Positions 13,811-52,829 of a stretch of 64,000 bases of DNA are shown here, piece by piece. Numbering within the stretch: position 1 is the stretch's first letter; the number at the start of each line of letters is the position of its first letter. The stretch lies in sequence record DRR723986_5794, one strand, 5' to 3'. The position numbers and the translations under genes are program-made. The notes beneath the pieces are model-generated. The model was given only the letters and a program-made list of their open reading frames with translations. It did not search any database and had not been told where the DNA came from.

Positions 13811-13863
13811 TGTAATTTTTTTTCTTGTTAATCTTTTCAAATTGTTCAACACAATAACGATAC

Positions 13864-23560: not shown

Positions 23561-23566
23561 AAGGTA

Positions 23567-24664: not shown

Positions 24665-24691
24665 AATTCCAATTGGATGAACTAATTTACC

Positions 24692-28401: not shown

Positions 28402-28411
28402 AATTTTCAAA

Positions 28412-29886: not shown

Positions 29887-29907
29887 ATAAAAATGAATAT
29901 CTCATAT

Positions 29908-29915
29908 CAAATTTA
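29908..29915 (-). promoter_or_regulatory. Possible internal -7 promoter TAAATTTG
   Basis: Exact TAnnTTTG match in the 59-bp gap, 21 bp upstream of ATG 29886. Confidence 0.45.
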
Positions 29916-29945
29916 GCTCAATTTAACTAGAGTTTGAAAGAATTG

Positions 29946-35037: not shown

Positions 35038-35045
35038 CTAACAAC

Positions 35046-36323
35046 TTAATCTAATCTTCTCCATTGAGGCTGATAATATATCAAACCACTATTTTTTGAC
35101 AAAGTTCTATGAACAATTGTGGATCCATCAACCACCTCAAATTGGCAGCAAAACTTGATAAAATCAAAATTTTCTTCAGACATACTGTCTCCGACCCAAA
35201 GTCCGACTTTATAAATGTCTGGATAAAGCATAATTGATCCGAAATCTACTTCAATGGTCTGTCTACCTTCGAAAGGCTCAAATTGAAACAGGGAATCACC
35301 ATTCTCTATATTTGAAATTAAAGTTTCATCAAACCTGTATAAATGTAAGGCCATTTTAAACCTTGATTTAGAACTACTTTTAAGCGTGATTTTCATTTTC
35401 AGGTTATCACCAATCACGAGAGAATTCGCCGGTTCATTATTAGCAAAAATTTCAACCTTTTCAAATTTAATTTCCCCAGTACCTTCTCTTTCTGTGACCT
35501 TAGTTAGATCTAACGTGTGATGATTTTGACTATCACCTGATTTCAAATACTTATTGATAGTTTCTTTTACGGGGCCCATAAAAGTAGAAGTACCATTTTG
35601 CATTAACACTCCATTCTGACACAAATTTTGCACTGATTGCATATTATGACTCACAAACAAAATTGTGCGACCACTGGTTGAAACATCCTTCATTTTCCCA
35701 ATGCATTTATTCTGAAACTCTTGATCTCCAACAGCCAACACCTCATCTACTACCAGAATCTCTGACTCTAAATGTGCGGCAACCGCGAAACCAAGTCGAA
35801 CAATCATACCAGAAGAATATCTTTTTACAGGCGTATCTAAATAGGCCGAACACCCCGAAAATTCAACAATCTCATCAAGTCGAGAGTTAATTTCATGTTT
35901 ATTCATGCCTAAAATCGCTCCATTTAAATAGATATTCTCGAGACCAGTAAGTTCAGGGTGAAAACCTGTTCCAACTTCAAGTAAAGAAGCAATTCTTCCT
36001 TTTATATAAACATTCCCTTTTGTAGGAGCAGTAATTCGGGATAAAATTTTAAGCAATGTAGATTTTCCAGCTCCGTTTTTTCCAATGACTCCTAGTACCT
36101 CTCCTTGCCGCAATTCAAATGAAACGTCTTTTAATGCCCAGACGTACCCATCATTTTTTGCATCAGCTCGATCATTAACGCGACCAACTTCTAGAAAAGG
36201 GTCTGCTTTTCCCCTTACTCTATGCCAAAACCTGTTCAAGTCATGGGAGATGGTTCCTGTGCCTACCTGACCTAATCTGTATTGTTTAGAGAGATCCTCT
36301 ACTTTTAAAATTATATCTGACAT
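35046..36323 (-). CDS. wzt: Polysaccharide ABC exporter ATPase with C-terminal carbohydrate-binding domain
   Basis: GKNGAGKST, YSSGM, VDEVLAVGD and VSH motifs, plus a ~160-aa beta-rich C-terminal extension. Confidence 0.93.
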   Translation of the reverse strand: MSDIILKVEDLSKQYRLGQVGTGTISHDLNRFWHRVRGKADPFLEVGRVNDRADAKNDGYVWALKDVSFELRQGEVLGVIGKNGAGKSTLLKILSRITAPTKGNVYIKGRIASLLEVGTGFHPELTGLENIYLNGAILGMNKHEINSRLDEIVEFSGCSAYLDTPVKRYSSGMIVRLGFAVAAHLESEILVVDEVLAVGDQEFQNKCIGKMKDVSTSGRTILFVSHNMQSVQNLCQNGVLMQNGTSTFMGPVKETINKYLKSGDSQNHHTLDLTKVTEREGTGEIKFEKVEIFANNEPANSLVIGDNLKMKITLKSSSKSRFKMALHLYRFDETLISNIENGDSLFQFEPFEGRQTIEVDFGSIMLYPDIYKVGLWVGDSMSEENFDFIKFCCQFEVVDGSTIVHRTLSKNSGLIYYQPQWRRLD

Positions 36324-36326
36324 AGG

Positions 36327-37211
36327 TTAAATCGTATCCATGAATGATTTTTCTACTCTACCAAAAAGGCGTGTACCAATCAATAAAATTATGATGGCCA
36401 TTAGGCCACTGTACGCTAAAAAACACCAATTAAAAACGCCAAATTCTTGACCATAAAAGGCTACTTTAAAGGTCTCAACAATACTTGTCATTGGATTAAT
36501 CGCTACAATCCATTGATGCTTAAGTTGAATGCTATCTAAAGGCCAAACAATAGGAGTGGCATACATCACAAGCTGAATTCCAAAAGTGATTAAAAACCTC
36601 AAATCTCTATACTTAGTGGTAAGAGCGGATATTATCAAACCCACACCTAATCCTAAGGATGCCATAATTAGGACCAACAATGGGATTAACACTAATTGCC
36701 AAGATGGCCCTACGGCCATTCCTTCTTCATTAAATCCTAATCCAAAAATAAAATAATAGGATAAGTAAATGATGATAAACAATATGAACTGGACTGAGAA
36801 CTTTATTAAGTTCGTCAAAACAATGGAAAGAGGTACTATAAGTCTTGGAAAATAAACTTTGCCGAAAATGCCCTGATTTGTAATAAAGGTATCAGAAGTT
36901 TTGGTGACACAATCTGCAAAGTAAGCCCATACAGTAACACCCAACATATAAAACAAAATTGGAGGAACACCGCTTGTTCCGACCGCAGCGATTTTGGTAA
37001 AAACAATGTAAAAAGTAATGGTCGTCAATATCGGCTGAATAACAACCCACAATGGTCCTAATATTGTTTGCTTGTACAGTGAGATGAAATCTCTTTTTAC
37101 AAACAATAACAATAAATCTTTATACCTGAAAAGTTCTGAGAAATTAATTCCTCCGCTCTTTGATTTAGGCTTTAATACTAAGTCCCAACCTGTATTTTTT
37201 GTTTCAGACAT
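36327..37211 (-). CDS. wzm: Polysaccharide ABC exporter permease
   Basis: YKQTILGPLW, KVYFPR, KYRD and YATPIVWP motifs; multiple TM helices. Confidence 0.93.
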   Translation of the reverse strand: MSETKNTGWDLVLKPKSKSGGINFSELFRYKDLLLLFVKRDFISLYKQTILGPLWVVIQPILTTITFYIVFTKIAAVGTSGVPPILFYMLGVTVWAYFADCVTKTSDTFITNQGIFGKVYFPRLIVPLSIVLTNLIKFSVQFILFIIIYLSYYFIFGLGFNEEGMAVGPSWQLVLIPLLVLIMASLGLGVGLIISALTTKYRDLRFLITFGIQLVMYATPIVWPLDSIQLKHQWIVAINPMTSIVETFKVAFYGQEFGVFNWCFLAYSGLMAIIILLIGTRLFGRVEKSFMDTI

Positions 37212-37256
37212 TACTGTTATTCAACGAAATTTAATGAAAAATGTTCCCAAAACTAA

Positions 37257-38399
37257 CTATAAAAGCGCATCATCATAAATTCTGCGTATCCTTTCTCCAA
37301 TTATAACTGGATCATTAATCGTTCTAATCTTTTTCAAAGATGCATTTGCCTTTATTTTTATCCGTTCAGGATCTTCAATTATTGAGGATATAATTGTCAT
37401 TAATTGTGATTTAATATCATTTCGAATTTTGGCTCGAGCTTCATCTGATCTAGGGACTGACCTTCTATCTTTATCTTTGTCTACTTCTATTAACCATCCA
37501 ATCTCATTATTATTTATTTCAGCTAAAGCAGCACCATCCGTTGAAATAACAGGGCATCCCGCCGCTTGACCTTCTAGGGCAGAATACCCATAAGTCTCAT
37601 CAAATGAAGGCAATAGAACAATGTCAGTCTCTTTCAAGACTTTCATTACATCAGCATTAGGCAACCATTTATGCCAAGTGATTGCTTCGTATTTTGAGAT
37701 GAGTTTAACTGCCCAATCTTTGTCTGCTTGAGTTGATTTTGATGCAAAGTCCCCTGTTTCTAATGATGAAACAATGACCAATTCTACAGGAGCCCCTTTC
37801 ACCAATAGCTCTTCAAACACCTCCAGCACTTCTCTACCACCTTTGTGAAAAAACACCCCTCCTACCAAAGCAAATCTTATTTTATCACTTTGAGGTTTAT
37901 CTTCCAAACTATCAATTAATAATTTTTGAGACGGATGAATAATCTCTACTTTATTGATGATTTGATCATAATACTTTCCGTAGTCTTTCAGGTAGTTCTT
38001 TTGAGCATTTAGCGCATAATCTGAAGTTGCTATCAACTTTTTACAGGGATCTCCCAATATCAATTCTAAAACCCTATCAATGTATTTTGATTCATTCTCG
38101 AACTTACCATAATAGTGAGCTCCGCGTGGTAAATAGTACTCAAATGTTGTTATCCATGGTTTTTTGCCCTCGCTCACAGAGTTCCAAAAATGAAGCAAAT
38201 CATAACTACCTGAATTAAAATCTTTGAACAGGTTATCCTTAAATGGATGTACCTTTTTTTTTAATTTAAAGTGAAGGTGCCTGTGGAATTTGTGAAGATC
38301 AAAAGTCTTTTTATACGTACAGTTTGGAACCTGCGCATCAATGAAATTTCTTCTTTCATTGTAGCCACTAGAGTGATATCCAACAATAATTTTTTTCAA
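37257..38399 (-). CDS. GT4 family glycosyltransferase
   Basis: HKGG and ETYGYSALEGQAAGCPVIST (EX7E) motifs; TTG start. Confidence 0.9.
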   Translation of the reverse strand: MKKIIVGYHSSGYNERRNFIDAQVPNCTYKKTFDLHKFHRHLHFKLKKKVHPFKDNLFKDFNSGSYDLLHFWNSVSEGKKPWITTFEYYLPRGAHYYGKFENESKYIDRVLELILGDPCKKLIATSDYALNAQKNYLKDYGKYYDQIINKVEIIHPSQKLLIDSLEDKPQSDKIRFALVGGVFFHKGGREVLEVFEELLVKGAPVELVIVSSLETGDFASKSTQADKDWAVKLISKYEAITWHKWLPNADVMKVLKETDIVLLPSFDETYGYSALEGQAAGCPVISTDGAALAEINNNEIGWLIEVDKDKDRRSVPRSDEARAKIRNDIKSQLMTIISSIIEDPERIKIKANASLKKIRTINDPVIIGERIRRIYDDALL

Positions 38400-38408
38400 C
38401 AGATCAGA

Positions 38409-39257
38409 CTATTTAATAAAAATTATATTGTCTTCATATCCTTTTGGTAATTCACTTATGCTCTTCAATCCGAAAGGCCACCCTTTAGGTAAAAATGGTT
38501 TGAAACCTAAACCTGTGACTTCATTGTACAATTCTTCACTCGTATATCCCGCTTTAGAACAATTATCCTCCATAATCTCCATTATTAGAATCATGTTTTT
38601 TGAACGTTCGATAATATTTTTTGCTCCTTTTAAAAAAGCTAACTCTGCACCTTCGATATCAACTTTCATTAAGTCAATAGATTTTATATTGTTCTCATCA
38701 CAATAGGTATCTAAAGTTTTAATTTCAACTTCTGCAGATTCAGAATCTTGGGAATTCGAACTATAGATATTTGCCGAACCCGTATTTTTATGATTGTAAT
38801 TAAGAGTGAAAGAGCCCGGTTGATCGCCTAATCCAATTTTATTTAAAGAGATGGTTTTCTTCAATTCAGGATTTAGAGCTAAATTTTTTTCTAAAAATCT
38901 TAAGGTATAAGGGTTAGGTTCGAAACAATGAATTTGATGTTCTTTACTAGATAAATGTTTAGCCAGGGTTAAGCTAAAGAAACCGATATTGGTGCCCACA
39001 TCTATACACGTTATGGATTCGGACTCTACGCTGTCAATTAATCGCAACATTTGTCGAACTGTGTTTTGTTCATACGAATCAAACAGGAATATCTGCTTCA
39101 TCTGATATTCATTTAGATCAAGATGAAATTTTACTCCTTGTGAGTTTTTATACTCCATTGGACTTTCAAACTTGCTCATATCAACTTTACGGGCCATTTT
39201 GCCTTTCATTTGATTAAGAGGAAATTTTCGTAAATAACTAAGAAGTAAGCTGCTCAT
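38409..39257 (-). CDS. FkbM family methyltransferase
   Basis: IDVGTNIG, CFEPNP and DLMKVDIEGAE motifs. Confidence 0.92.
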   Translation of the reverse strand: MSSLLLSYLRKFPLNQMKGKMARKVDMSKFESPMEYKNSQGVKFHLDLNEYQMKQIFLFDSYEQNTVRQMLRLIDSVESESITCIDVGTNIGFFSLTLAKHLSSKEHQIHCFEPNPYTLRFLEKNLALNPELKKTISLNKIGLGDQPGSFTLNYNHKNTGSANIYSSNSQDSESAEVEIKTLDTYCDENNIKSIDLMKVDIEGAELAFLKGAKNIIERSKNMILIMEIMEDNCSKAGYTSEELYNEVTGLGFKPFLPKGWPFGLKSISELPKGYEDNIIFIK

Positions 39258-39279
39258 TTAATTTATTTCTGTGTTTCGA

Positions 39280-41355
39280 TTAATCGATAAAAACCTTTTT
39301 TGTAATGACATGGCCATCATAGGAAATCAAACGTACTATAAAAATACCATCAGTCAAAGCTTGGAAACGTATCACCTCATCTTTGCTATGTCCAAAACTT
39401 TCATGGACTTTTGATCCATTTACGGAAAAAACTTGGAGGTGATAATCAGATAAATCTGTATAGATTAATAACCCATCCGTCTGGCCCGTTATTATTACAT
39501 GACCGCTATAGATTGGAATATTTGAACAATCTAGAAGAGCCACATATATGGAGTCTGTTGTTGCACAAACTGAATTGGTTACATGAACAGTGTATATGCC
39601 TGTTGTTGAAACTGTTAGGACTGAATCATTTAGTACAGGTCCTCCTCCCCAATCATAAAATTCTCCTTCAGAACCGGCATTTATTGTATATACCGAATCG
39701 CAAGTTGAAACAGCTGAATCTAAGTCAACAATAACTGAATCTATCAATAAATAATAGGTAAGTGTATCAGAAACAAAACCATTATTAACTACGCACCATA
39801 CTGAATCAATTCCAGAATTAACAAAGGCAAGAGTATCTCCAGTGCTGCTTGGACTAACATCATTATTTAAATACCACTCATGAATTAGTGGAGAACCAAA
39901 GCAATTTGGAACTGAAACGACTACGTCCTCATTTAAGCAGAAATCGAGTGAATCGTTTTCTAAATCTAGAGGAGGATAAATCTTTGCGAAGAGTGCGTCA
40001 AACTTGGACACAGGCGCCACGATTGAGGCGTCACCGTTGAAATCGTAATTTCCTTTTGCTCTTGCAGCGATATAAAGATCTCCAAATTTACTTTCTAATA
40101 ATAGATAGCCCTGAGCGCTATGTGTTCCTGTTGGGTCTAGGCTCCACAATGAATCACCGTCTGTATTATAAGCGATTATCCTCACTTCTCCTTTACTTGA
40201 GGATGTAAAATAGTCATATCCAGCGTAGCCACCAGTAACTACTAAGTTTCCTTTTTTATTTTTCACTATTGAATGATGTTCATCTGCTTTGAGACTTTTC
40301 ACATCTTTAACCCATAAGCATGATGAACCATCTAAAGAATACTTGGCTAAAAATGCATCACGACTATTTAAAAAACCAGGTCCGGAGATAGTTTCAGAAT
40401 TAGAAAAAACGGTCACCGTGTCGAAATAAGCTTCATGCCCATAAGATCCTACTACAAAAATTGCATCTTCATCCTGAACTAAATCCAAGCATTCATCATA
40501 ACCATTTCCTCCAGCAGTTTCTATCCACTCTATAGTACCGCTAGTATCCATTTTACCAAAAAACATATCCTCCCATGAGGTCGAATATGAGTTAGCTGTG
40601 ATTGATGAAAATTGAACAGTACCCCTGATTTGACCACCAAACAATATTTTGTCATTATAAATTTCTAATGCACTGAGTTCAGTGTTTGCTCCACCACTTA
40701 CATTTGAAGGACCGTTGCACCAAATAATTGAGCCGTTGGTGTCCATTTTTAGTAGGAAATATCCAGGATCAACAAGTGTACCGATACTGTAATTCATATT
40801 TCCACTTTGAACACCCCCAATGTAGAGGAATCCGTTCTTGTCTGACTGAATTTCAACTCCGTAATTGGCGTTATCACCTTGAAAAGTATTAACCCATATA
40901 ATATTACCGTTGGCGTCATATTTTGCAACAAACATATCTCCTGCTGCATCACTTAGGACCCCAATCGAACCAAAATACGCTGAATCACTGGTAATACCCG
41001 TAACATATATGAAATCGTTTTCATCAACAGCAACACCATTAGCATAATCAGACCCCGTTCCACCTTCTGCAAAAGCCCATAGAAAATTCCCACTTGTATC
41101 CATTTTTGAAACAAAAACATCCCTTGAGCCAGCGAAATACCCTCCGTTCACGATTGAATCGGTTCCATAGAAATCTGCCTGTGCCCGATACCTTCCAACT
41201 CCATATATAAACTCCTGACTTGAATCAAATTCAAGATCAAAACAATAATGATTAGCACCTCCACCTTCAAGTTTATTCACCCAATCCCAATTTTGAGAAA
41301 ACGAGTAAAAAAAAGCTGTATTCAACAACATAACAAGAAATGCGATATTTTTCAT
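39280..41355 (-). CDS. T9SS type A cargo with SBBP-like beta-propeller repeats and Ig-like stalk
   Basis: Signal peptide SFS-Q; repeated D.F..K.D..G...W units; C-terminal VFSVNG..GIFIV..KKVFID CTD-like tail. Confidence 0.8.
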   Translation of the reverse strand: MKNIAFLVMLLNTAFFYSFSQNWDWVNKLEGGGANHYCFDLEFDSSQEFIYGVGRYRAQADFYGTDSIVNGGYFAGSRDVFVSKMDTSGNFLWAFAEGGTGSDYANGVAVDENDFIYVTGITSDSAYFGSIGVLSDAAGDMFVAKYDANGNIIWVNTFQGDNANYGVEIQSDKNGFLYIGGVQSGNMNYSIGTLVDPGYFLLKMDTNGSIIWCNGPSNVSGGANTELSALEIYNDKILFGGQIRGTVQFSSITANSYSTSWEDMFFGKMDTSGTIEWIETAGGNGYDECLDLVQDEDAIFVVGSYGHEAYFDTVTVFSNSETISGPGFLNSRDAFLAKYSLDGSSCLWVKDVKSLKADEHHSIVKNKKGNLVVTGGYAGYDYFTSSSKGEVRIIAYNTDGDSLWSLDPTGTHSAQGYLLLESKFGDLYIAARAKGNYDFNGDASIVAPVSKFDALFAKIYPPLDLENDSLDFCLNEDVVVSVPNCFGSPLIHEWYLNNDVSPSSTGDTLAFVNSGIDSVWCVVNNGFVSDTLTYYLLIDSVIVDLDSAVSTCDSVYTINAGSEGEFYDWGGGPVLNDSVLTVSTTGIYTVHVTNSVCATTDSIYVALLDCSNIPIYSGHVIITGQTDGLLIYTDLSDYHLQVFSVNGSKVHESFGHSKDEVIRFQALTDGIFIVRLISYDGHVITKKVFID

Positions 41356-41394: not shown

Positions 41395-43782
41395 TTAATC
41401 ATCATTTTGATCACTACCGTATCCTGACCCATAGCCATAACCGTATCCACTTGCATAAGAATAACGATATGAGTATTTATATGAATATTTACTATAGTAA
41501 TAACTGAATTTACTTTGTCTTATTCCATTTAATATTAAACCGGTGCTCAAGTTCTCATGTCTCGACAAAAAGTCTTCGATCGTTTGCACGCCTCTTTTAC
41601 GTGCAAAATTTGAATTCAGAACAGCAATAAATACGTCAGCGTGTTTACCCAACTCTATTGAATCGCTTAATAGTCCAAATGGAGGGGTGTCAATTATTAG
41701 ATAATCATAGTTTTTATTAGCAAACTCAAAAAATTCTTTAATGGTTTCTTGCAATATTAATTCTGACGGATTTGGAGGAATTGGACCTGAAGGAATAATA
41801 TCCAAATTTTCGATTAAATTATCTGCAATTACATCCTCTATTTTATTTGAACCTATTAAAAAATTAGTCATTCCTATTTGATTATCCAACTCAAAAGATT
41901 TGTGGACTTTAGGTTTATGGAGATCCAGGTCTACAAGTAAAACTTTCTTTTCTGATTTAGCTAAGATTGTTGCCAAATTGGATGAACAAAACGTTTTTCC
42001 TTCACCAGGAAAAAAAGAAGAAATTAATATTTTCTTTGCTCCAGTATAATTCCCAAGAAAAGAAATATTTGTCCTCAGGTTTCTAAAACTTTCAGTGATT
42101 TGAGCTTTAGGTTGATCGACCACTACTATATCTTTAGTTAAGCCTTTCAACCAAGGCAAACCACCAAGTACTGGAATAGTGCTGATTTCTTTTAATTCAT
42201 GAACGCTTTCAATTTTTTCAAAGAATAACCTTCTGACAACAGCAATAACTAGGGCAATTATAACCCCCATCAAGGTGAATAAATTACGAACTCTCGTTTT
42301 GTTTGGGCCTGTTACTCCTATTGAAGCTGCTGTTTCAATTATTTGGACTTGCGGTATGATACCAGCCCTAGCAATTAAAGTATTCGTTTTTTTCTCTAAT
42401 AAAAACAAATACATTTTATTATTCACTTCTAATTCTCGTCTTATATTTTCCACACCTTGCAGTGACCTTGGAATACCTTGGACATCTGATTTATATTGAG
42501 CTATTAGTTTATTGTTTTCGATAATTTGTAAACCAATTGCTTTTTGGAGGTTTTTCAAGTAGACAAGGATATCCTTACGCATTATATCAAGATCGTTTTT
42601 CATCTTGACTACTGTAGGGTGGTCTTCCGTAACGTTCAAAATACTTTCTGAAATGCTCAATTGTAAGGTATAATACTCGGTCACTTTTGTTTGGAGATAC
42701 ACGTCATTTTGTAAAACATAAAAAGATGGAGGTAGGAGTCTATCGTCACTTGAATTTTTTATATAATCTTCTAATAAATTTACCGAACTAAGTTGATTTT
42801 GAAATTCAACATTTTTATCAGTATAGGTTACAAACAATTTGAAATAGGCATCTTCTTCCTTTGTTAGATGAATAATATCATTTTCATTCTTATATTTTAA
42901 TAATTCGGCTTCGATATTTACCAGTATTTTCTGAACCTCATCTATTTGTTTTTCTATGTTATCAAGGGTATTCTTATTAATTGCAAGTTGGCTTCTTTGT
43001 GAGTAGTCAATAAAGACTGCAGATAATGTATCAAGGAAGACCTTCGCCCTTGCTTCAATATCATCAGTTACATTAACCTCAAGAATACTCGTATATTCAA
43101 TATTTTCAATTGCCATACGACTTTTAAAATGATCAATCATATAGGCTTTAGAGTGGACGATCATCTCGTAATCAGGGGCTAAAATCTTATCCAGATCACC
43201 TTTCGAAAAACTATAATTTTTCTCCAAAACTAATCTAAAATCAGTTGTTATTAAATCTTGTCCAAAAACTCCATTCTCCTGATGCAACACACCTCCCAGT
43301 TCATAATTTAAGACATAATTATTTTCATTTTCAATTTTTATTTGGATGGGCGTCTCATACATTTGGATTTCGTTGTAAATCTCAACTTCGGCTCTAAATG
43401 GCAGTGTTCCAAAAACTTCTTTTCTTTTTAATCGACCAATGATATAATACGAAATATTGACATCCATTTTGTCAACTACCTCTTCAATTAAATCTCTAGA
43501 TTGCAGAATTCTGATTTGGTTGCTAACATCCATGTACATCCCATAAGCACCTAATCCCTTATAAATTGGGTCCTGGTAATCATAAGTTTCATTTGATTTT
43601 AAAAGCAACTGGGCCTTTGCTCCGTAAATATCAGATAAACGATAAACATAGATGTATCCAATTGAATATGCAATTGCTGGTAAAATAATCAGCAGGGCTA
43701 AATTCTTCCTAATCAGCTTCCAAATAGAAAGAATATCTTTCAATTCGATTAATTTATTTGTCGATTGTATGTGATTAGCCAT
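41395..43782 (-). CDS. wzc: Polysaccharide co-polymerase / BY-kinase (Wzc/GumC family)
   Basis: Two TM helices around a large periplasmic coiled region, ESFRNLRTN, Walker A PGEGKT, DLDL, IIDTPP and a Tyr-rich tail YYYSKYSYKYSYRYSYASGYGYGY. Confidence 0.93.
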   Translation of the reverse strand: MANHIQSTNKLIELKDILSIWKLIRKNLALLIILPAIAYSIGYIYVYRLSDIYGAKAQLLLKSNETYDYQDPIYKGLGAYGMYMDVSNQIRILQSRDLIEEVVDKMDVNISYYIIGRLKRKEVFGTLPFRAEVEIYNEIQMYETPIQIKIENENNYVLNYELGGVLHQENGVFGQDLITTDFRLVLEKNYSFSKGDLDKILAPDYEMIVHSKAYMIDHFKSRMAIENIEYTSILEVNVTDDIEARAKVFLDTLSAVFIDYSQRSQLAINKNTLDNIEKQIDEVQKILVNIEAELLKYKNENDIIHLTKEEDAYFKLFVTYTDKNVEFQNQLSSVNLLEDYIKNSSDDRLLPPSFYVLQNDVYLQTKVTEYYTLQLSISESILNVTEDHPTVVKMKNDLDIMRKDILVYLKNLQKAIGLQIIENNKLIAQYKSDVQGIPRSLQGVENIRRELEVNNKMYLFLLEKKTNTLIARAGIIPQVQIIETAASIGVTGPNKTRVRNLFTLMGVIIALVIAVVRRLFFEKIESVHELKEISTIPVLGGLPWLKGLTKDIVVVDQPKAQITESFRNLRTNISFLGNYTGAKKILISSFFPGEGKTFCSSNLATILAKSEKKVLLVDLDLHKPKVHKSFELDNQIGMTNFLIGSNKIEDVIADNLIENLDIIPSGPIPPNPSELILQETIKEFFEFANKNYDYLIIDTPPFGLLSDSIELGKHADVFIAVLNSNFARKRGVQTIEDFLSRHENLSTGLILNGIRQSKFSYYYSKYSYKYSYRYSYASGYGYGYGSGYGSDQNDD

Positions 43783-43945
43783 TATTTATTTTAAAGTGTA
43801 AAAGTACTGAGTATCTTTCAATTTACTTCATTAGTAGTTTAGGTCATCAACACATACGATTAGTAATGAAATTTGTTACAATCCAACCCTAGTCTGATTA
43901 CCAACATCTTAACTTTGAATAATTGCCTATTTTAATTATTTAGGT

Positions 43946-43953
43946 TATATTTG
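43946..43953 (+). promoter_or_regulatory. -7 promoter element TATATTTG for the T9SS cargo/exosortase unit
   Basis: Exact TAnnTTTG match 29 bp before ATG 43983; TTG at 43923-43925 gives 20-bp spacing. Confidence 0.55.
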
Positions 43954-43982
43954 TTGATACTCTTAAAATAAACTGTAACTCT

Positions 43983-46900
43983 ATGTCTAAGTTCTTATTA
44001 TCCAGTGCCTCTATTTTGTTTTTAATAGGAAGTACAACCTTCGCTCAAACTGGGCCAGGTGGTATTGGCGACAACACTACTGCTCCTTTTTGGCTAGACG
44101 CTCATACAATGGGAGGGGCGAATGGATCAAAAATTTCAAGCTGGACTGATTATTCGGGAAATAATAATAATGCTGTCGAATCTGATCCAACTTATCAGCC
44201 GACTTATGTTACTGGGTCTCTAAACGGCAGAAATGCTTTAGACTTTAATAAGGGACATTATTTAACTGCCGGTGCAGAGAGTAACATGAATAGTTTGTCT
44301 TACTTCAGCTACTATATGGTTGGGACGATTGAAACAGCAAACACCCTTGGATTTCCATTTAGCGTGGATTATGGAACGGTCGCACCCGACAATGCCTTTT
44401 GCGGCTTTTGGGTATCCTCTAATGAGATCACGGCATACGCTAGAAGAGGTAACCCAATTTTAAAAACTTCCTTTCCAACTTTTACAGGACTTAATGTTTT
44501 TCAAGGCACTTATGACAAAGCGATCAACACACTATCTGCTACCCGTAATTGGACATTAGACTCTGACACCATTCAAACACTGCGATCAACAACAGCCAAT
44601 CATGAGGAATTCTGGATTGGTGGAACAAATAGTGCAGGAACACAACATTATTATTCTGATGCAAAAATTGGTGAAATTTTCGTTTTTACTTTTGACCTCA
44701 ATTCTACCCAACAAAAAATATTAGAAAACTACATTTCTGCTAAATACGGAACAGCAACTTCAAGTGACATGTATACTTTCGAAGGAACCTATGGATTGGG
44801 AGTAGTTGGAATCGGTCAGGATAACGTTGCTACTGCACACACCGACTCACAAGGTAATGGAATGGTAAGAATAAGTTCACCTGACGATTTACAAGATGGG
44901 GAATACTTGTTCATTGGACATGATGATGTTGAGGTTACTTCTTTCAACTTAAATACAAATGTACCAACAGTAATTGCGTCTTCGGCTTCAAGATTTGTTA
45001 GACAATGGAGAGCTGAAAAAACAGGTAATTTGGGCAACATCACATTAAAATTTGACCTTGATGCATCAACCAATTTTTCATCTGACCCTAACAATTATAG
45101 ATTATTAATTCACAGTTCACCCGACATGAGTGGGACTATTGACCATGTTCTTTCTGGCACTTATAACGCTGGAGAAGAGTCGATTACCTTTACAAATGTT
45201 GATTTAAATACTGGTGATTACTTCACATTGGCAGGGGATACACCAGATGAAATTCACTCAATCACAGATGGTGGATGGAATACACCTGGAACATGGGATT
45301 GTACTTGTATCCCAACAGCATTTAATGAAGTTTATATTGACCCTGGAACGAACGTGACTGTTGACGTTGACGCGAATGCTTATGGACTTTACGTTGAGGC
45401 AGGTGGAAATTTAATTATGAACGCACCGTTTACTTTAAATATTTTTGATGCCTTTGAAATTGCCAATTCAGGAACAATAGATTTCACTGATGGAAAAGTT
45501 GCAATGGTCGGTAATACTGACCAGGGAATTAATGCTTTCGGAGCAACAGTTGATTTTCATGATTTAGAAATAAACAACTCAACTGGAAGCAATGTTGATT
45601 TGTTCTCATCTGTTTATCAATTAAACGGAAGCTTACTTATGGAAAAAGGACACCTGATTATTGACAATTCAGCCGGTGGTTTGTTTGTAGTTCGATCTAC
45701 GTCACCGACAACCTCTGGAAGAATTGGAGAAATAAAACCAGGAACAACCATTTCAGGAAACGTAAGAGTTGAACGATTTATTACTGGAGGAACTGCAGAT
45801 TGGAGAAATATGTCATCACCAATCGCAAATGCAACATTAGATGATTGGGATGCTGAAATGTTTATGTCTGGTACTGGCTTTCCTGATGGATGTGCTTATG
45901 GCCCAGATGGATGTTTTTTCTCAGTGAAAGAACATAAAGTTGGACAATTTTATGATGTTACTGATCCGAACCTGCCTTTAGTTCCTGGTAGAGGTTATGA
46001 AGTTTTTGTAGGAGATGATTTAAACTCATTCTCAGGAGTAACGGTAAATACTAATGGCCAATTAAACACAAGTGCTGATGTGAATATCTCATACTCTCAT
46101 GACTGGAATACTCTAGGTAATCCTTACGCCTCACCAATCTTGTTTTCGACTGTTCAAAAATTCTCAACAACTGGCGACTATTTCTACGTTTATGATGCTA
46201 CAACGGGAGGCTATCAATGGTATGATGGTTCTTCAAACACAAGCAGTATTCCAGAATTGGCAAATGGTAGACTAGCCTCAGGACAAGGGTTTTGGACTAA
46301 TGGATGGGGAACAATGACATTTAAACAATCTGATAAGGTTGACGAAACGGCTACTTTTATACGTAATAGCGAGACTCCTGACAACGCACTTTATTTGACA
46401 TTGAACGAATCTCAATCAACTTATTCTACAACAATCAGTTTTGCTGAAAGCGCGATTTGTCTAGATGGATTTGATACAATTCAAGACATCAAACATTTAA
46501 GTATGGGGAATGAGAAATGTCCTACTCTTGCAATTGAGACTTCTGAAGATTTATTGAGAAAAAACTGGATGAACTCTGAGGTAAAAGACAAGACTTATGA
46601 TTTATACTCTAAATTCTTAAATGAAGGTTATTACACGATTGAAGCTACTAATTTGACTCATTTCAATAGCTATGGAAGAGTCATGTTATTTGATTCTGAA
46701 ACACAGGAATTTGTTAATTTGAAAGAAAATCCGAATTACACCTTTTATGCAGAAGTTGGAGAATCCAATAGATTTAGTATCGTATTCTCCAACAATCAAG
46801 ATCTTGGAATAGAAGAAGTAGGAGCAGCTTCTATAAATGAATTAAGCAATGACCTAACAATTGTTCAAATGAACAATGTGATTAACATCAAATCAACAAA

Positions 46901-47081
46901 AAATATAGAGAATGCCAATATCGTTTTGTATAATGTTTTAGGGCAAGAAGAGATTAGGTTTGATGTAAACACGTTAAATTCGGGAGACAACCTTTTCACG
47001 ATTCCTTCAGATATAAGCGGAGTTCGCATTTTATCAATATTCGAAAATGGAAACCGTGTTTCCAAAAAACTCGTATTTTAG
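43983..47081 (+). CDS. Large T9SS type A cargo protein (LamG/concanavalin-like N-terminus, beta-rich core)
   Basis: Signal peptide TFA-Q; WLDA..SWTDYSGNNN; WNTPGTW; WNTLGNPYASPI; CTD-like LYNVLGQ..SGV....KKLVF. Confidence 0.85.
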   Translation: MSKFLLSSASILFLIGSTTFAQTGPGGIGDNTTAPFWLDAHTMGGANGSKISSWTDYSGNNNNAVESDPTYQPTYVTGSLNGRNALDFNKGHYLTAGAESNMNSLSYFSYYMVGTIETANTLGFPFSVDYGTVAPDNAFCGFWVSSNEITAYARRGNPILKTSFPTFTGLNVFQGTYDKAINTLSATRNWTLDSDTIQTLRSTTANHEEFWIGGTNSAGTQHYYSDAKIGEIFVFTFDLNSTQQKILENYISAKYGTATSSDMYTFEGTYGLGVVGIGQDNVATAHTDSQGNGMVRISSPDDLQDGEYLFIGHDDVEVTSFNLNTNVPTVIASSASRFVRQWRAEKTGNLGNITLKFDLDASTNFSSDPNNYRLLIHSSPDMSGTIDHVLSGTYNAGEESITFTNVDLNTGDYFTLAGDTPDEIHSITDGGWNTPGTWDCTCIPTAFNEVYIDPGTNVTVDVDANAYGLYVEAGGNLIMNAPFTLNIFDAFEIANSGTIDFTDGKVAMVGNTDQGINAFGATVDFHDLEINNSTGSNVDLFSSVYQLNGSLLMEKGHLIIDNSAGGLFVVRSTSPTTSGRIGEIKPGTTISGNVRVERFITGGTADWRNMSSPIANATLDDWDAEMFMSGTGFPDGCAYGPDGCFFSVKEHKVGQFYDVTDPNLPLVPGRGYEVFVGDDLNSFSGVTVNTNGQLNTSADVNISYSHDWNTLGNPYASPILFSTVQKFSTTGDYFYVYDATTGGYQWYDGSSNTSSIPELANGRLASGQGFWTNGWGTMTFKQSDKVDETATFIRNSETPDNALYLTLNESQSTYSTTISFAESAICLDGFDTIQDIKHLSMGNEKCPTLAIETSEDLLRKNWMNSEVKDKTYDLYSKFLNEGYYTIEATNLTHFNSYGRVMLFDSETQEFVNLKENPNYTFYAEVGESNRFSIVFSNNQDLGIEEVGAASINELSNDLTIVQMNNVINIKSTKNIENANIVLYNVLGQEEIRFDVNTLNSGDNLFTIPSDISGVRILSIFENGNRVSKKLVF

Positions 47082-47096
47082 TAGAAAATTTTGAAA

Positions 47097-47342
47097 ATGA
47101 ATTTTAAAATCTATATATATCGTACGCTTCTTGTTATTGCAGGAGTTTTATTTAACATAGCCCTTTGGGCTCAACCTCCAGGTGGTCCTCCTCCAGGCGG
47201 TGGTGGTTCTACTGGAACCAATCCACCTTGTTGGCAACCTGAATGTGTACCTATTGATGGTGGCGTGGCATTTTTATTAGGCGCTGGTGTCCTATTGGGA
47301 GTTAAAATGATTTATGATCAACGTATTAAAAGTAGAGTCTAA
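47097..47342 (+). CDS. Small PID-CTERM-type sorting-signal peptide (signal peptide + Pro/Gly linker + VPIDGG + TM + basic tail)
   Basis: MNFKIYIYRTLLVIAGVLFNIALWA-QPPGGPPPGGGGSTGTNPPCWQPEC-VPIDGG-VAFLLGAGVLLGV-KMIYDQRIKSRV; directly upstream of an exosortase. Confidence 0.85.
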   Translation: MNFKIYIYRTLLVIAGVLFNIALWAQPPGGPPPGGGGSTGTNPPCWQPECVPIDGGVAFLLGAGVLLGVKMIYDQRIKSRV

Positions 47343-47358
47343 GGCTCTACTTTTTTTC

Positions 47359-47883
47359 ATGAAAAAACTTCTTGAAAATAACATAGTCCGGTTTTTAATA
47401 TTAGCCGCTGGCCTCTATGTCATTTGGTTAATACTGTATTACTTCGTTATTAAAACTCAAACCAATTGGGATTATTATTTGAATTACAATATATGTAAGC
47501 TATCCGACCTATTTTTGGGCTTATTTGCTGTTGATACCTACATAGATATTGAAAGTGATCATGTTGTTTTATTCATGGATGGAGGAAACTATCGTGGAAT
47601 TTGGGTAGGTGATGAATGCAATGGCTTTAAGCTATTTTCAATTTTTACCATTTTTATTCTTGCCTTTCCTGGAAATATAAAAAAGAAAGCTTGGTTTATT
47701 CCGCTGGGACTTGTCATTGTTCATTTAGCCAACGTCATACGAGTTGCGGGCTTGGTTTTAATCAACAACTATTATCCTAAATTTTTAGATTTCAACCATT
47801 TATACACGTTTACGGTATTCGTCTATGGTATCATTTTTCTCCTTTGGTATTGGTTTGCAAAAAAGATAGTAGGGAATGAATAA
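47359..47883 (+). CDS. Exosortase/archaeosortase family protein (XrtX/XrtF-like)
   Basis: Likely start ATG 47359; multi-TM; catalytic Cys (VGDECNG), Arg (ANVIRV) and His (FNHLYTF). Confidence 0.88.
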   Translation: MKKLLENNIVRFLILAAGLYVIWLILYYFVIKTQTNWDYYLNYNICKLSDLFLGLFAVDTYIDIESDHVVLFMDGGNYRGIWVGDECNGFKLFSIFTIFILAFPGNIKKKAWFIPLGLVIVHLANVIRVAGLVLINNYYPKFLDFNHLYTFTVFVYGIIFLLWYWFAKKIVGNE

Positions 47884-48340
47884 AAAACTCATACTTTCAC
47901 TACTTACCATCTTGATAATAGGACTTGGCTTTATACGCGGATACCTTTTTGGCAATATAAATTGGATTTACAAAACGCTAACCGAAAACAGGAAGAATCA
48001 AGCCAGACATGAATTCCATTCGCTATTGGAATGGAGCCCAAATTCAATCCTATTACTTAAATGGACCTTAACCTTTTTATTCTTCGGTTTGTTCTGGCTT
48101 TTAACAAACAGAATTATTCATTTCGCTTTTAAAAATAAAAACTACGACAGGATAGTTAGCCTAATGTACCTTGGCATGCTCGGAGTGTCAGGGATATTGT
48201 ATCTTTCAGGTTTAGTATCGGGCTATTCACTAGAATTCTATTTTTTAGTTCGAACGGTAATGGGAATGGCACAATCATTTATGCCGTTAATGATTCTGTT
48301 TATTATCATTAAATTTTTACCACAATCGTCATCCAAATAA
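47876..48340 (+). CDS. Exosortase-associated membrane protein
   Basis: About four TM helices; start overlaps the exosortase stop by 8 bp; RGYLFGNIN and LKW motifs. Confidence 0.7.
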   Translation: MNKKLILSLLTILIIGLGFIRGYLFGNINWIYKTLTENRKNQARHEFHSLLEWSPNSILLLKWTLTFLFFGLFWLLTNRIIHFAFKNKNYDRIVSLMYLGMLGVSGILYLSGLVSGYSLEFYFLVRTVMGMAQSFMPLMILFIIIKFLPQSSSK

Positions 48341-48373: not shown

Positions 48374-49648
48374 ATGGGAACAGATTCTGTAATTTTCGAT
48401 TTAATCCAGCAAGAAAAACAACGACAACTTAATGGCCTAGAATTAATTGCATCTGAAAATTTTGTAAGTCAAAATGTTTTAGACGCCATGGGATCAATAC
48501 TCACCAACAAATATGCTGAAGGACTTCCTCATAAAAGATATTATGGTGGATGCGAAATTGTCGATCAAATTGAAGATTTAGCCATTAACAGAGTTAAAGA
48601 ATTATTTGGAGCAACTTGGGCAAATGTTCAGCCTCACGCCGGATCTCAAGCTAACGCAGCTGTCATGTTAGCCTGTTTAAAACCAGGTGATAAAATATTA
48701 GGGTTTGACCTGTCTCACGGCGGACACTTAACTCATGGATCTCCAGTAAACTTTTCAGGTAAACTATATGAGAATTATTTTTATGGTGTGAACCCAGAAA
48801 CTGGACAAGTTGATTATGATCAGATGGCTGCTGTTGCACTAAAAGAAAAGCCCCAGCTAATTATTGTTGGGGCATCCGCATACTCGAGAGATTGGGATTA
48901 CGTTAGAGCAAGGCAAATAGCAGACGAGTGCGGAGCAATCATATTAGCTGACATTTCACATCCTGCTGGACTAATTGCTACAGGGTTACTAAATGACCCT
49001 CTGGATTATTGCCATATCGTTACAACGACAACTCACAAAACATTGAGAGGGCCAAGAGGTGGAGTTATCATGATGAGAAATGATTTTGAAAATCCATTTG
49101 GAATTAAGTTGAAAAACGGAAATCTTCGTATGATGAGCTCTTTACTAGACTCTGCAGTTTTCCCTGGCTCGCAAGGAGGACCGCTCGAACATGTAATTGC
49201 AGGTAAGGCGGTTGCATTTGGAGAAGCACTAAATCCTTCTTTTAAAGAATACGGAAAGTTGGTGATTCAGAATGCCCAAATTATGGCCCAAGAATTTGTG
49301 AGTAAAGGATACAAAATTATTTCGGGAGGCACTGACAATCATTCAATGTTAATTGATTTAAGGTCTAAAAACATCACCGGTAAAGATGCCGAAAACGCCC
49401 TTACAGAGGCAGATATTACGGTAAATAAGAATATGGTTCCATTTGATGATAAATCACCATTTGTTACTTCGGGAATAAGAATTGGAACAGCAGCACTGAC
49501 TACAAGAGGTGTGAAAACTAATGAAATTCCTCAGATCACTGACTTAATCGACCAAGTTATAACTAAAGCTGGAAATCCAGATCATTTAGAAAAAGTTAAG
49601 AATGAGGTAATTAACTTAATGAAAGATAAACCACTATTTGCTTGGTAA
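48374..49648 (+). CDS. glyA: Serine hydroxymethyltransferase
   Basis: LIASEN, NKYAEG, GGHLTHG and [14 protein letters not shown] motifs. Confidence 0.98.
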
Positions 49649-49649
49649 T

Positions 49650-50867
49650 TTACAATGCCGCTAATAGCAATTCAATATTTTTAAAGGGAAGATCAAATAC
49701 TTTTCCAAGTATTTCAGAAGTCAATTTACCCTGATAAACATATACGCCACTTCTGAACCCTGGGTCTTTTTTGATCATGTCTTTGCATCCTCCCATATCT
49801 CCAATGTCTAGGACAAGTGGTGAAAATATATTACTCAATGCAATAGAAGCTGTTCTAGACACCCTTGACGCCACATTTGGTACGCAATAATGAATTACAT
49901 CATGCTTGACAAAGGTCGGATTGGTATGATTAGTTAAGCGAGAAGTTTCAAAACATCCCCCCTGATCTATACTGACATCAACAACAACAGAGCCCGGCTT
50001 CATTCCTTTAATCATCTCTTCGGTTACAATACAAGGCGTTCTTCCCAAACCTGCTCTCACCGCACCAATGACAACATCCGCTCTCATTATTGCCTTCTCA
50101 AGCATTTTGGGCTGAATAACAGAAGTATACACTCTTGTCCCAATGTCATTATGCAATCTTCTTAATTTGGAAATGGAGTTATCGAAAACTTTCACTGATG
50201 CTCCTAAACCTAAAGCAGCTCTACATGCATACTCACCTACTGTTCCTGCTCCCAAGATCACAACTTCTGTTGGCCTCACTCCTGCAACACCGCCCATCAT
50301 GATTCCTTTTCCAGTATTGTAATTGGATAAAAGCTCGGATGCAATCAGAATTGAGGTGTTTCCAGCAATTTCACCCATAGCCCTTACTACAGTGAAAATA
50401 TTATGTTCGTCTTGGATATAATCCCAAGCGATTGCTGTTATCTTCTTATTCATCAACATCACCAAAGTCTTTTTGGGATGCAAGGTCAATTGAAGCGCAG
50501 ACATCAAAGTTTGATTACCTGGCATCAACTCAATTTCTTCTTCAGTTGGAGGTGCAACTTTGATAATTATGTTGGATTTAAAAACCTCAGCGGTATCAGA
50601 AGTAATTTCTGCACCAGCTTCAGAATAATCAACATCCTCATATCTCGAAGCTTTTCCAGCTTCAGATTCGACAACTACCCTATGTCCATTACTTACTAAT
50701 AGTTGAACCGCCTCTGGATTCAAGGCAACACGATTCTCTTGAAAAGTAGTTTCTTTCGGGATACCAATCATTAGCTTCCCTTTCTTCTTGCCAATGGCCA
50801 ACATTTCTTCTTGTGGCAATAAGCTACCCTGCGTCATTAATGATTTGAGCGTTTCTGGATCTGTCAT
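49650..50867 (-). CDS. ald: Alanine dehydrogenase family protein
   Basis: IGIPKE..QENRVAL, ILGAGTVG, DVSIDQGGCFETS and HYCVPN motifs. Confidence 0.9.
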   Translation of the reverse strand: MTDPETLKSLMTQGSLLPQEEMLAIGKKKGKLMIGIPKETTFQENRVALNPEAVQLLVSNGHRVVVESEAGKASRYEDVDYSEAGAEITSDTAEVFKSNIIIKVAPPTEEEIELMPGNQTLMSALQLTLHPKKTLVMLMNKKITAIAWDYIQDEHNIFTVVRAMGEIAGNTSILIASELLSNYNTGKGIMMGGVAGVRPTEVVILGAGTVGEYACRAALGLGASVKVFDNSISKLRRLHNDIGTRVYTSVIQPKMLEKAIMRADVVIGAVRAGLGRTPCIVTEEMIKGMKPGSVVVDVSIDQGGCFETSRLTNHTNPTFVKHDVIHYCVPNVASRVSRTASIALSNIFSPLVLDIGDMGGCKDMIKKDPGFRSGVYVYQGKLTSEILGKVFDLPFKNIELLLAAL

Positions 50868-51286
50868 AGTTCTGATACTTCAAATTGTCTGGTCGTTCCT
50901 TGTATTTTGATGTCTATCCTTACGAAATTTTCAGGCAAAAGGTTCGCAATACGTTCTGGCCATTCAATGAAAATATAAGCATCCTCTTCAAAAATTTCCT
51001 CCACTCCAATATCCAACGCTTCTGTTTCATCTTCAATCCGATAAAAATCAAAATGGTATATCGAACCATAATTTACGGAAAAATATTCGTTTACAATAGA
51101 AAACGTAGGGGATGATGTATGATCATCAACATCATACAATTCCAGCAATTTATTGATCAAGGTTGTTTTACCTGCCCCCATTTCACCATTAAAAATGACG
51201 AATTTACAACCAGTATTGGAGAGGTGCTCCTTAATTGTTGAAGCAACGAGGGTTAAATCTTCAATTTTTGCAGCTGTTAGTTTCAT
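50864..51286 (-). CDS. tsaE: tRNA threonylcarbamoyladenosine biosynthesis ATPase
   Basis: GEMGAGKTT, SSPTFSIVNEY, HFDFYR and IEWPE motifs. Confidence 0.96.
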   Translation of the reverse strand: MKLTAAKIEDLTLVASTIKEHLSNTGCKFVIFNGEMGAGKTTLINKLLELYDVDDHTSSPTFSIVNEYFSVNYGSIYHFDFYRIEDETEALDIGVEEIFEEDAYIFIEWPERIANLLPENFVRIDIKIQGTTRQFEVSEL

Positions 51287-51287
51287 T

Positions 51288-52829
51288 TTATTTAGGACTC
51301 AATTCTACCCAAGGAATGATCACCTCCTCCAATGAAACTCCGCCATGTTGAAAGGTGTCATTATAATATTTTACGTAGTGATTGTAATTATTTGGATAAG
51401 CAAAGAAGTCGTTTTCTTTTGCAAAGATGAATTGAGAACTCACATTCTCCTTTGGCAATTGTACGTCTTCCGGATTACTGGATACAATCACCTCTTTTTC
51501 ATTGTAATTTAAATTACGCCCCACCTTGTACCTCAAATTCGTATTGGTACTCTTATCTCCAACGACTTTTACAGGATTATCTACACGAATAGTTCCATGG
51601 TCAGTGGTAAGCACCACTTTTATTCCTTGCTCAGCAACTTTTTGCAACATTTCTTTTAATGGAGAATGATTGAACCACGAAACCGTTAAAGAACGGTAAG
51701 CAGCTTCATCATCAGCCAACTCTTTGATCACTTCCATTTCAGTTCTGGCATGTGATAACATGTCAACAAAATTATACACTATGACATTTAAGTCATTCTG
51801 CATCAACTCATTGAATCGATCCACCATTTTTTTGGCGTAATCCAATTTCACAACTTTGTTGTAAGACATTTTTACATTCTTTCTATGTCGATCTAAATTG
51901 GCTTGCATCAATTCTTTCTCGTGCATATTTTTTCCGCCTTCATCATTTTCATTCAACCATAAATTGGGATGATCTTTTTCAATTTGAAGTGGCATTAACC
52001 CAGCAAATAAAGCATTTCTAGCATAATGAGTTGCTGTAGGTAAAATAGAATAAAAAGTCTCTTCTTTATCGACATTATACATTTCTGAAATGGCCGGTTT
52101 TAATACTTTCCATTGATCGTATCGCAAATTATCTATTACGATTAAAAACAATTTTTCATTCCCTACTCTATCCATCAATTTTTCTGACAATACCTTATGA
52201 GACATGATAGGCCCATCCGATTCATTTAACCAGTCTTGATAATTTTTATCGACATACTTACAAAACTGTGTATTGGCTTCCTTTTTTTGCATGGCGAGTA
52301 TCTCTTTCATCCCATCATCATTGGAATTTTCAAGTTTCAACTCCCATTTCACCAATTTATCATAGATATCAGCCCACTCATCAGCATCAAGTCGATCGTT
52401 TAAGCGCATTCCAATTTCTCTAAATTCAATTTGATAATCAGATGTCGTTTTTTGACTGACCAGATTTTTGGAATCAAGATTCTTTTTTAAGGCTAGCAGA
52501 ATTTGGTTTGGATTGACTGGTTTTATCAGATAATCTGATATTTGCCCTCCTATGGCCTCTTCCATAATATGCTCTTCTTCACTCTTTGTGATCATGATGA
52601 TGGGTACATTTTGATTGCGTTCTTTGATTTTAGCCAAAGTCTCCAACCCAGTTAGCCCAGGCATGTTTTCATCTAAAAAGATGATATCATAATGTGACTC
52701 CTCAACAATTTCTACGGCATCTGAGCCATTATTCACGGTGTCGATCTCAAAGCCTTTATCCTCTAAGAATAGGATGTGGGGTTTCAAAAGATCTATTTCA
52801 TCATCAGCCCAAAGTATTCTGCCTTCCAT
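51288..52829 (-). CDS. porX: Response regulator with PglZ/alkaline-phosphatase domain (T9SS regulator PorX)
   Basis: Receiver ILWADDE..LDENMPG..TKSEEE; PglZ IDNLRYDQW, LPTAT, TTDHG and FQHGG; porX-tsaE synteny. Confidence 0.92.
   Translation of the reverse strand: MEGRILWADDEIDLLKPHILFLEDKGFEIDTVNNGSDAVEIVEESHYDIIFLDENMPGLTGLETLAKIKERNQNVPIIMITKSEEEHIMEEAIGGQISDYLIKPVNPNQILLALKKNLDSKNLVSQKTTSDYQIEFREIGMRLNDRLDADEWADIYDKLVKWELKLENSNDDGMKEILAMQKKEANTQFCKYVDKNYQDWLNESDGPIMSHKVLSEKLMDRVGNEKLFLIVIDNLRYDQWKVLKPAISEMYNVDKEETFYSILPTATHYARNALFAGLMPLQIEKDHPNLWLNENDEGGKNMHEKELMQANLDRHRKNVKMSYNKVVKLDYAKKMVDRFNELMQNDLNVIVYNFVDMLSHARTEMEVIKELADDEAAYRSLTVSWFNHSPLKEMLQKVAEQGIKVVLTTDHGTIRVDNPVKVVGDKSTNTNLRYKVGRNLNYNEKEVIVSSNPEDVQLPKENVSSQFIFAKENDFFAYPNNYNHYVKYYNDTFQHGGVSLEEVIIPWVELSPK

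Follow-up and report, generated by a model that had tools for sequence, protein, structure and literature searches.

Linkage of an exosortase X/PID-CTERM cassette to a dedicated Wzc branch and a RemA-like type IX secretion cargo in Bacteroidota

The 64,000-nucleotide stretch of sequence record DRR723986_5794 analysed here (the window) carries a four-gene unit encoding a putative type IX secretion system (T9SS) cargo, a PID-CTERM microprotein, exosortase X (XrtX), and an XrtX-associated protein with four transmembrane (TM) segments. The unit is divergent from wzc, behind which lies a glycan operon with an ATP-binding cassette (ABC) exporter. Comparison with G001 and other related genomes established family membership, catalytic residues, linkage and co-inheritance of these genes, a dedicated Wzc branch, and homology of the cargo to RemA of Flavobacterium johnsoniae. 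The gene anatomy given in a preliminary description of the window (200-bp spacer, 1032-residue cargo, 81-residue peptide, exosortase, and overlapping four-TM protein) was confirmed by coordinates (Table 1). Judging by the names of homologues, the source may be a Crocinitomicaceae-like organism.

The XrtX cassette, its Wzc branch and its cargo

XrtX, PID-CTERM and XrtX-associated proteins are catalogued in NCBIfam (NF046081, NF046080, and NF046082), and the window proteins pass all three cut-offs and stand in the common cassette order. The exosortase reached 183.6 bits against a cut-off of 170 (scored as a 189-residue open reading frame, ORF), the microprotein 35.7 against 26, and the partner 82.3 against 75. 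These curated scores bear out the names XrtX and PID-CTERM, which the preliminary description had given. The 189-residue form begins at an alternative upstream ATG (47314), and homologues start at the second ATG (174 residues). Each of the 41 aligned XrtX sequences keeps Cys87, Arg128, and His147, in agreement with the Cys/Arg/His noticed earlier. By curated score and catalytic residues, the window enzyme is assigned to exosortase X, with cleavage or transpeptidation of the sorting tail as the predicted activity. In one genome (G034, locus L021), a second exosortase cassette, distinct from the XrtX one, has on either side a protein with a VPTL/IPTL-type tail; it may be of the XrtH/IPTL-CTERM kind.

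The partner gene lies directly behind xrtX in 45 of 50 loci. Its product has four TM segments by hydropathy, and its AlphaFold2 model is a helical bundle (pLDDT 96). Foldseek gave no match at E ≤ 0.001, a fold search gave generic helical-bundle matches only (best Z 8.3, root-mean-square deviation 6.0, 132 aligned), and ESM Atlas gave unnamed Bacteroidota clusters only. The window partner aligns to the partner of the Flavobacterium exosortase XrtF (hhalign probability 81, E 1.2e-5), and the XrtF partner matches NF046082 at E 3.6e-4; by these profile matches, the two are distant homologues. A literature search, with most subscription papers outside its coverage, found no study of XrtX or PID-CTERM, and the cassette belongs to a catalogued family for which we have so far found hidden Markov model (HMM) names and no functional study. 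PMC9950754 was set aside, as it concerns other genes.

Gene linkage was scored within up to 20 kb around xrtX in the 20 XrtX-positive genomes among 41 relatives and at 30 class-wide loci, the latter a non-random set drawn from the stronger matches, in which each family has one or two loci. Several loci end at contig ends, and only about 5 kb downstream is covered. wzc lies near xrtX at 17/20 relative and 22/30 class-wide loci (39/50 together, 27 of 34 families), and at none of 10 lower-scoring or second-copy exosortase loci. The corresponding counts are 8/20 and 12/30 for wzm, 10/20 and 16/30 for the cargo family, and 15/20 and 12/30 (27/50) for glyA, which is undercounted because of the limited downstream cover. 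Thus, the tie of the exosortase unit to glycan loci and to the cargo family proposed in the preliminary description holds across the class.

The genes remain clustered although their order is shuffled between genomes. The orders seen were wzc divergent from xrtX-cargo-PID, wzc divergent from cargo-PID-glyA-xrtX, cargo-PID-wzc-xrtX, and wzc divergent from cargo-PID away from xrtX. xrtX and wzc are on separate contigs in G008, G011, and G039; in G039 the PID gene lies away from xrtX and moves with cargo and wzc. In three genomes, a separate PID gene forms the end of an operon of DegT aminotransferase and sugar-transferase genes. Two single loci differ further: G011 (L290) has a RemA-type cargo within the wzc glycan locus with PID and xrtX on another contig, and G008 has, upstream of PID in the usual slot of the cargo, a gene that by eye resembles an IS200-type transposase (L008:2692-3219).

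Co-inheritance was compared between XrtX-positive and XrtX-negative relatives. The Wzc type, called at 400 bits or more to the window Wzc (the next value is 351, leaving a score gap), is present in 20/20 XrtX-positive vs. 3/21 XrtX-negative genomes, and within the family of the window in 11/11 vs. 0/14. RemA-type cargo, judged by its C-terminal half, is present in 19/20 vs. 2/21. The PID model matches in 19 of the 20 positive relatives, mostly as a single copy, and the twentieth has a divergent PID copy adjoining xrtX. Across 300 sampled genomes of the class, with one unpublished genome excluded, 187 encode XrtX-family enzymes; these include 145 of the 147 PID-positive genomes, and 145 of the 187 have a PID match. 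The peptide is the evident XrtX substrate, as had been assumed.

Wzc of the window, a polysaccharide co-polymerase with a tyrosine kinase, scores 160.4 bits against TIGR01007 (cut-off 108.05), which identifies its autokinase domain. The genomes in the Wzc comparison have two or three Wzc each, and adjacency of wza was defined by coordinates as within about 3 kb. None of the xrtX-linked wzc genes has an adjacent wza (0/14 class-wide and 0/4 at family level, 0/18 together), compared with 21/24 and 5/5 for other wzc genes. In an unrooted tree of 54 sequences, 28 of 31 xrtX-linked Wzc form one branch with support 100/100 and no wza-linked member. The other three, from three genomes, belong to a different lineage in an equivalent genomic position. 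Absence of an adjacent wza, judged on these 18 genes, is a property of the whole XrtX-linked Wzc branch. In G035 (L288), where XrtX was not found, the Wzc type is divergent from a 1760-residue gene and has no recognised glycan genes behind it.

Among 50 window ORFs, including the whole glycan locus (22379-43782), no Pfam match to Wza, O-antigen ligase/Wzy_C, or Wzx was found. The locus has Wzm/Wzt instead of an adjacent wza and Wzx/Wzy and does not class as a capsule-type locus. Elsewhere in their genomes, five of five relatives have four to six Wzy_C genes and at least one wza, and the idea of an organism without ligase or outer-membrane polysaccharide export (OPX) protein was rejected. The missing OPX of the preliminary description is therefore real as an absence beside xrtX-linked wzc but, going by the relatives, not as an absence from the genome, and its suggestion that the peptide system explains the missing ligase and OPX is not supported as it stands, since nothing needs replacing. 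Because both gene kinds exist elsewhere, the locus may borrow Wza and a ligase-like gene product, with wza acting in trans.

Besides a LamG-type domain, the cargo model (AlphaFold2, pLDDT 86) shows a beta-helix segment and other beta domains. Foldseek with the whole cargo returned mostly LamG-fold and beta-helix matches at a query TM-score of about 0.16 and 9-14% identity, indicating likeness of fold only. Positions 676-1017 of the cargo family profile align to RemA 1082-1435 (PDB 8gl6_D) with E 1.9e-25; the profile also aligns to two other C-terminal domains (CTDs). The T9SS tail scores 22.4 bits against TIGR04183 (cut-off 23) and aligns to the end of RemA, and cargo homologues carry PF18962. 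Homologous parts are the C-terminal half and a short upstream repeat, with no significant match to the RemA N-terminal region before profile position 415; where the N-terminal half of RemA fails to align, the window cargo has its LamG-type domain. By this alignment, the cargo is RemA-like in its C-terminal half and is not classed as a RemA orthologue. RemA binds a polysaccharide that depends on Wza and Wzc. A PID gene stands behind RemA-type cargos in 4/5 cases with downstream sequence in G197, in 2/6 in G135 and, by script, in 2/5 in G206; the pairing of cargo and PID is frequent, not obligatory. Tandem pairs of PID genes behind one cargo gene occur at L124 (G280) and L304 (G206).

The microprotein and its Flavobacterium counterpart Fjoh_0651

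The window microprotein consists, in order, of a signal peptide, a Pro/Gly linker, CWQPEC, VPIDGG, a TM segment, and a basic tail, so that motif, TM segment, and tail are C-terminal as in other PID-CTERM proteins. Its mature part is predicted to be about 27 residues, Pro/Gly-rich, with a Gln start and two Cys. In 33 aligned peptides, with mature ends set by a crude signal-peptide rule, mature length is 14-40 residues (median 22; the value of 40 reflects a missed cleavage). Gln is the first residue in 25/33, Lys occurs in 1/33, two Cys in 26/33, and a D-S/T-X glycosylation sequon in 0/33. N-terminal Gln of this kind is cyclised by Bacteroidetes (PMC10653852; this and the other papers cited are used for the portions available). 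From the Gln start and the near absence of Lys, the peptide would therefore lack a general nucleophile, leaving its C-terminal carbonyl as the remaining general reactive handle, which the exosortase would activate. The preliminary description had proposed that the exosortase processes or lipidates the peptide, which would be a membrane anchor or acceptor for glycan or cargo. Because most mature peptides lack a free amine and none has the sequon, the peptide fits better as an acyl donor than as an acceptor for PorU-cleaved cargo or O-glycosylation.

PID-tail proteins are marked by PF28310. The 150 PID matches listed are in open frames of 33-222 residues. Restriction of PID tails to microproteins was rejected as an absolute rule, with two bearers of 202, one of 173, and one of 960 residues; a fourth long match has an apparently mis-called start. 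Longer PID-tailed substrates seem to exist, yet look rare. The 960-residue protein (P0266, Hymenobacter metallicola) is a multi-TM protein annotated MSEP-CTERM with a canonical VPIDGG tail at its end, and judging from it, folded substrates of the PID signal may exist. The 202-residue PID-CTERM proteins of G047 (L322:1650-2258 and L323:1549-2157) are of low complexity, rich in Asn, Phe, and Glu, and each is encoded directly 3' of a T9SS cargo gene.

In F. johnsoniae, XrtF (Fjoh_1448, TIGR04128) and its partner Fjoh_1449 (TIGR04127) likewise combine a short exosortase with a homologous four-TM partner, in a genome with a PID-type microprotein. The XrtF system is needed for biofilm and colonisation. 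It differs in arrangement: in the Flavobacterium genomes analysed, the peptide gene lies apart from xrtF, and the 3.5-kb xrtF loci have no flanking wzc. Deletions of porU, porZ, xrtF, fjoh_1449, the DegT gene fjoh_0334, and the “hypothetical” fjoh_0651 share one identical phenotype row, from which sprA and porV deletions differ in one column; colonisation was restored by complementation, and the wza-type gene Fjoh_0361 was likewise in the screen (PMC10936215, Table 2).

With a motif from the fjoh_0651 primer, 13 Flavobacterium micro-ORFs adjoining ribE were found, and their profile retrieved Fjoh_0651 (ABQ03686.1). The primer scan missed the UW101 locus, and none of the loci matched the upstream primer; the UW101 neighbourhood of fjoh_0651 is extrapolated from other Flavobacterium. 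Fjoh_0651 has a signal peptide, a Pro-rich linker, LPINQD, a TM segment, and a basic tail. It has no NCBIfam match (P0257/P0258) and misses the NF046080 cut-off, and it aligns to the PID profile with an hhalign probability of 96. When 4966 ORF tails were scored with the tail HMM as decoys, the Fjoh_0651 tail reached 13.3 bits, and all 104 tails at or above this score are PID-type micro-ORFs. Counterparts beside ribE include literal PIDGG forms, one of which (L204) passes NF046080 at 29.1. Fjoh_0651 is, by architecture and profile, a divergent PID-type microprotein.

XrtF is present in five of five tested Flavobacterium genomes with ribE-adjacent micro-ORFs, and its targets are described as “not yet known” (PMC12188702). 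Fjoh_0651 is a candidate XrtF target because it is PID-type and its deletion shares a phenotype row with deletion of xrtF. We found no literature on Fjoh_0651 beyond PMC10936215, which in the portion available calls it hypothetical.

Locus layout and neighbouring genes

The gaps from cargo to microprotein and from microprotein to exosortase are 15 and 16 bp. The boxes of Table 1 on the cargo side and ahead of glyA have the form TAnnTTTG, which occurs 68 times in the window (about once per kb); therefore, a single box is weak evidence. The separate promoter element that the preliminary description assigned to glyA is present, although as a single box it is weak evidence. glyA is a frequent neighbour at xrtX loci and probably not part of the system.

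Table 1. Features of the xrtX region and the divergent glycan operon (window coordinates)
Feature	Position	Strand	Remarks
Surface-glycan biosynthesis and ABC export operon behind wzc	22379-41355	-	Pfam/NCBIfam; also GT4/GT2/GT10 transferases, three FkbM methyltransferases, AsnB-type amidotransferase, epimerases, WecB
Wzt with Wzt_C	35046-36323	-	in glycan operon
Wzm	36327-37211	-	in glycan operon
Beta-propeller protein, weak T9SS-type tail	39280-41355	-	691 aa; glycan operon, next after wzc
wzc	41395-43782	-	795 aa
Divergent spacer wzc/cargo	43783-43982		exactly 200 bp; Bacteroidota -7-type boxes at 43910 and 43946 (+)
T9SS cargo gene	43983-47081	+	1032 aa
PID-CTERM microprotein	47097-47342	+	81 aa from ATG; 83 aa from TTG 47091
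Exosortase X (XrtX)	47359-47883	+	174 aa; NF046081
XrtX-associated four-TM protein	47876-48340	+	154 aa; 8-bp overlap with exosortase stop; NF046082
glyA	48374-49648	+	own -7-type box at 48351

Metatranscriptome contigs from one RNA run span cargo and microprotein (45046-47158) and microprotein, xrtX, and partner (47129-47939), and one contig starts at 43939 in the divergent spacer (a weak indication). The run covers 29 of 30 bins, and DNA carry-over is possible; therefore, the bridging contigs do not establish co-transcription.

Homologues of the 691-residue beta-propeller protein occur again inside glycan operons at L022, L029, L037, L038, and L124. Convergent with glyA are porX (T9SS response regulator), tsaE, and an alanine dehydrogenase-like gene (49650-52829, minus strand), an arrangement found again in the genus and family of the window (L025, L027-L029, and L035). 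A 1542-residue ORF at 2979-7607 (minus strand) has no Pfam match at E ≤ 1e-4, and three small DUF1573 (Ig-like) genes lie in tandem at 12491-13852 (minus strand).

Proposed pathway and its alternatives

PEP-CTERM/exosortase A (XrtA) and cyanoexosortase B systems likewise combine an exosortase with adjacent polysaccharide export genes, and they affect biofilm and exopolysaccharide (EPS) attachment. These systems have many large substrates and Wza in the locus, whereas the window type usually has one substrate of about 80 residues, an ABC exporter, and no adjacent Wza. None of the eight NCBIfam matches is to an XrtA model, and Wzc falls below the cut-offs of the XrtA-system models (TIGR03018, 111 against 231; TIGR03007, 49 against 279). 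Judged by these genes, the XrtX system resembles the PEP-CTERM/XrtA EPS system and is not classed as a member of it. Type B CTD cargo with a cognate PorP/SprF shuttle likewise has a dedicated partner gene directly behind T9SS cargo (PMC12618676); unlike it, the window partner is a microprotein sorted to the inner membrane, and the cargo CTD is a putative type A domain. The dedicated Wzc branch and RemA-type cargo are not included in the XrtX/PID-CTERM family names.

In the model that we tentatively prefer, XrtX would move the Pro-rich peptide of about 22-27 residues onto an amine that belongs to the exported glycan or glycolipid, and RemA-type adhesins would dock there. The four-gene unit and the divergent wzc/ABC operon would then be one envelope pathway. 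From what is known of the families, Sec would export the microprotein, signal peptidase I would expose the Gln, usually then cyclised, and the TM tail would keep the protein in the inner membrane. XrtX and its four-TM partner very probably cleave at the P-I-D motif. The 22-27-residue peptide is probably transferred through its C-terminus to an amine and not released. The amine would be on a glycan or glycolipid that the linked Wzc and ABC genes build and export, so that the surface glycan would carry a peptide cap. In the least supported step, the RemA-type half of the cargo would dock on the peptide with no covalent bond.

Several observations weigh against this pathway. Kin are not independent, and a single loss may account for all 14 XrtX-negative genomes in the family of the window. 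G032, G035, and G036 keep the Wzc type with neither XrtX nor PID found, and the first two also keep RemA-type cargo. glyA is a frequent neighbour too, so ancestral synteny accounts for part of the pattern. The mature peptide varies widely between genomes, which is awkward for a specific docking site. In two Flavobacterium genomes, no PID gene stands behind RemA-type genes (0/5), and wza adjoins both wzc genes in the one such genome checked. The phenotypes seen in F. johnsoniae (biofilm, zorbs, and colonisation) are coarse and could arise from unrelated envelope defects. Anchoring of type A cargo in C. hutchinsonii depends on WaaL and lipopolysaccharide (LPS) (PMC12860637), and the lipid anchoring of ArtA substrates needs PssA and PssD, a precedent for a lipid acceptor (PMC7157517).

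This last precedent, with the glycerophosphoethanolamine found on a rhombosortase product (PMC7468200) and the account in the Haft preprint, makes a lipid acceptor nearly as likely as a glycan. XrtX may possibly ligate the peptide to a membrane lipid (of phosphatidylethanolamine type or an amino-acid lipid), and the lipopeptide would be a tether or cofactor for the Wzc/ABC machinery or RemA-type adhesins. The linkage data fit this equally well, but the conserved neighbours are glycan genes, and the loci read, annotated only by similarity to window proteins, showed no phospholipid-synthesis gene among them.

Rather unlikely is mere co-regulation and ancestral synteny of separate surface functions, with XrtX processing a peptide that Wzc and cargo never touch. 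The position of glyA, the three genomes with the Wzc type and no XrtX found, the split of xrtX and wzc between contigs in three others, and the non-independence of the genomes would be expected from it. Against it, linkage persists through several gene orders, a second Wzc lineage occupies the equivalent slot, cargo and peptide move as a pair, and additional RemA-type genes have additional PID copies behind them, as for four of five cargos in G197.

Slightly more doubtful still is hydrolysis only, in which the freed peptide or the TM stub would serve in signalling or regulation, acting for instance on the Wzc kinase or on adhesin expression. One substrate per genome, usually, without a folded domain, would suit such a role, and the frequent two-Cys loop and blocked N-terminus would suit a stable peptide; but the mature part is poorly conserved, no receptor or regulator is conserved nearby, and the studied relative couples attachment to removal of the TM tail (Haft preprint). 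Covalent attachment of T9SS cargo by PorU to the processed peptide as nucleophile, in place of LPS, is very improbable because of the blocked N-terminus, the near absence of Lys, and the reports of LPS as anchor both in P. gingivalis and in C. hutchinsonii (the latter in PMC12860637), even though peptide genes come after cargo genes and deletions of xrtF, fjoh_0651, porU, and porZ share a row (PMC10936215, Table 2).

If glycan capping by the peptide holds, it would possibly form, with appreciable doubt, a third route of surface attachment in free-living Bacteroidota: an exosortase would spend a dedicated microprotein to put a short Pro-rich peptide on an ABC-exported glycan whose Wzc lacks its own Wza, this cap would be the docking site of RemA-type T9SS adhesins, and Fjoh_0651 would be the missing XrtF substrate. 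The acceptor of an exosortase has been called an “unidentified compound” (PMC7468200), and Fjoh_0651 would, if this is true, offer the first tractable route to the attachment partner of a Gram-negative exosortase substrate. For mass spectrometry, one substrate of 80 residues that yields a product of about 25 residues is well suited, and F. johnsoniae deletion strains for the enzyme, partner, and candidate substrate already exist (PMC10936215). The dedicated Wzc branch and the identification of Fjoh_0651 make the exosortase substrate and acceptor testable with these strains. A link between an exosortase, a Wzc branch without adjacent Wza, and a RemA-type adhesin would add to the routes by which a major environmental phylum displays surface molecules and forms biofilms.

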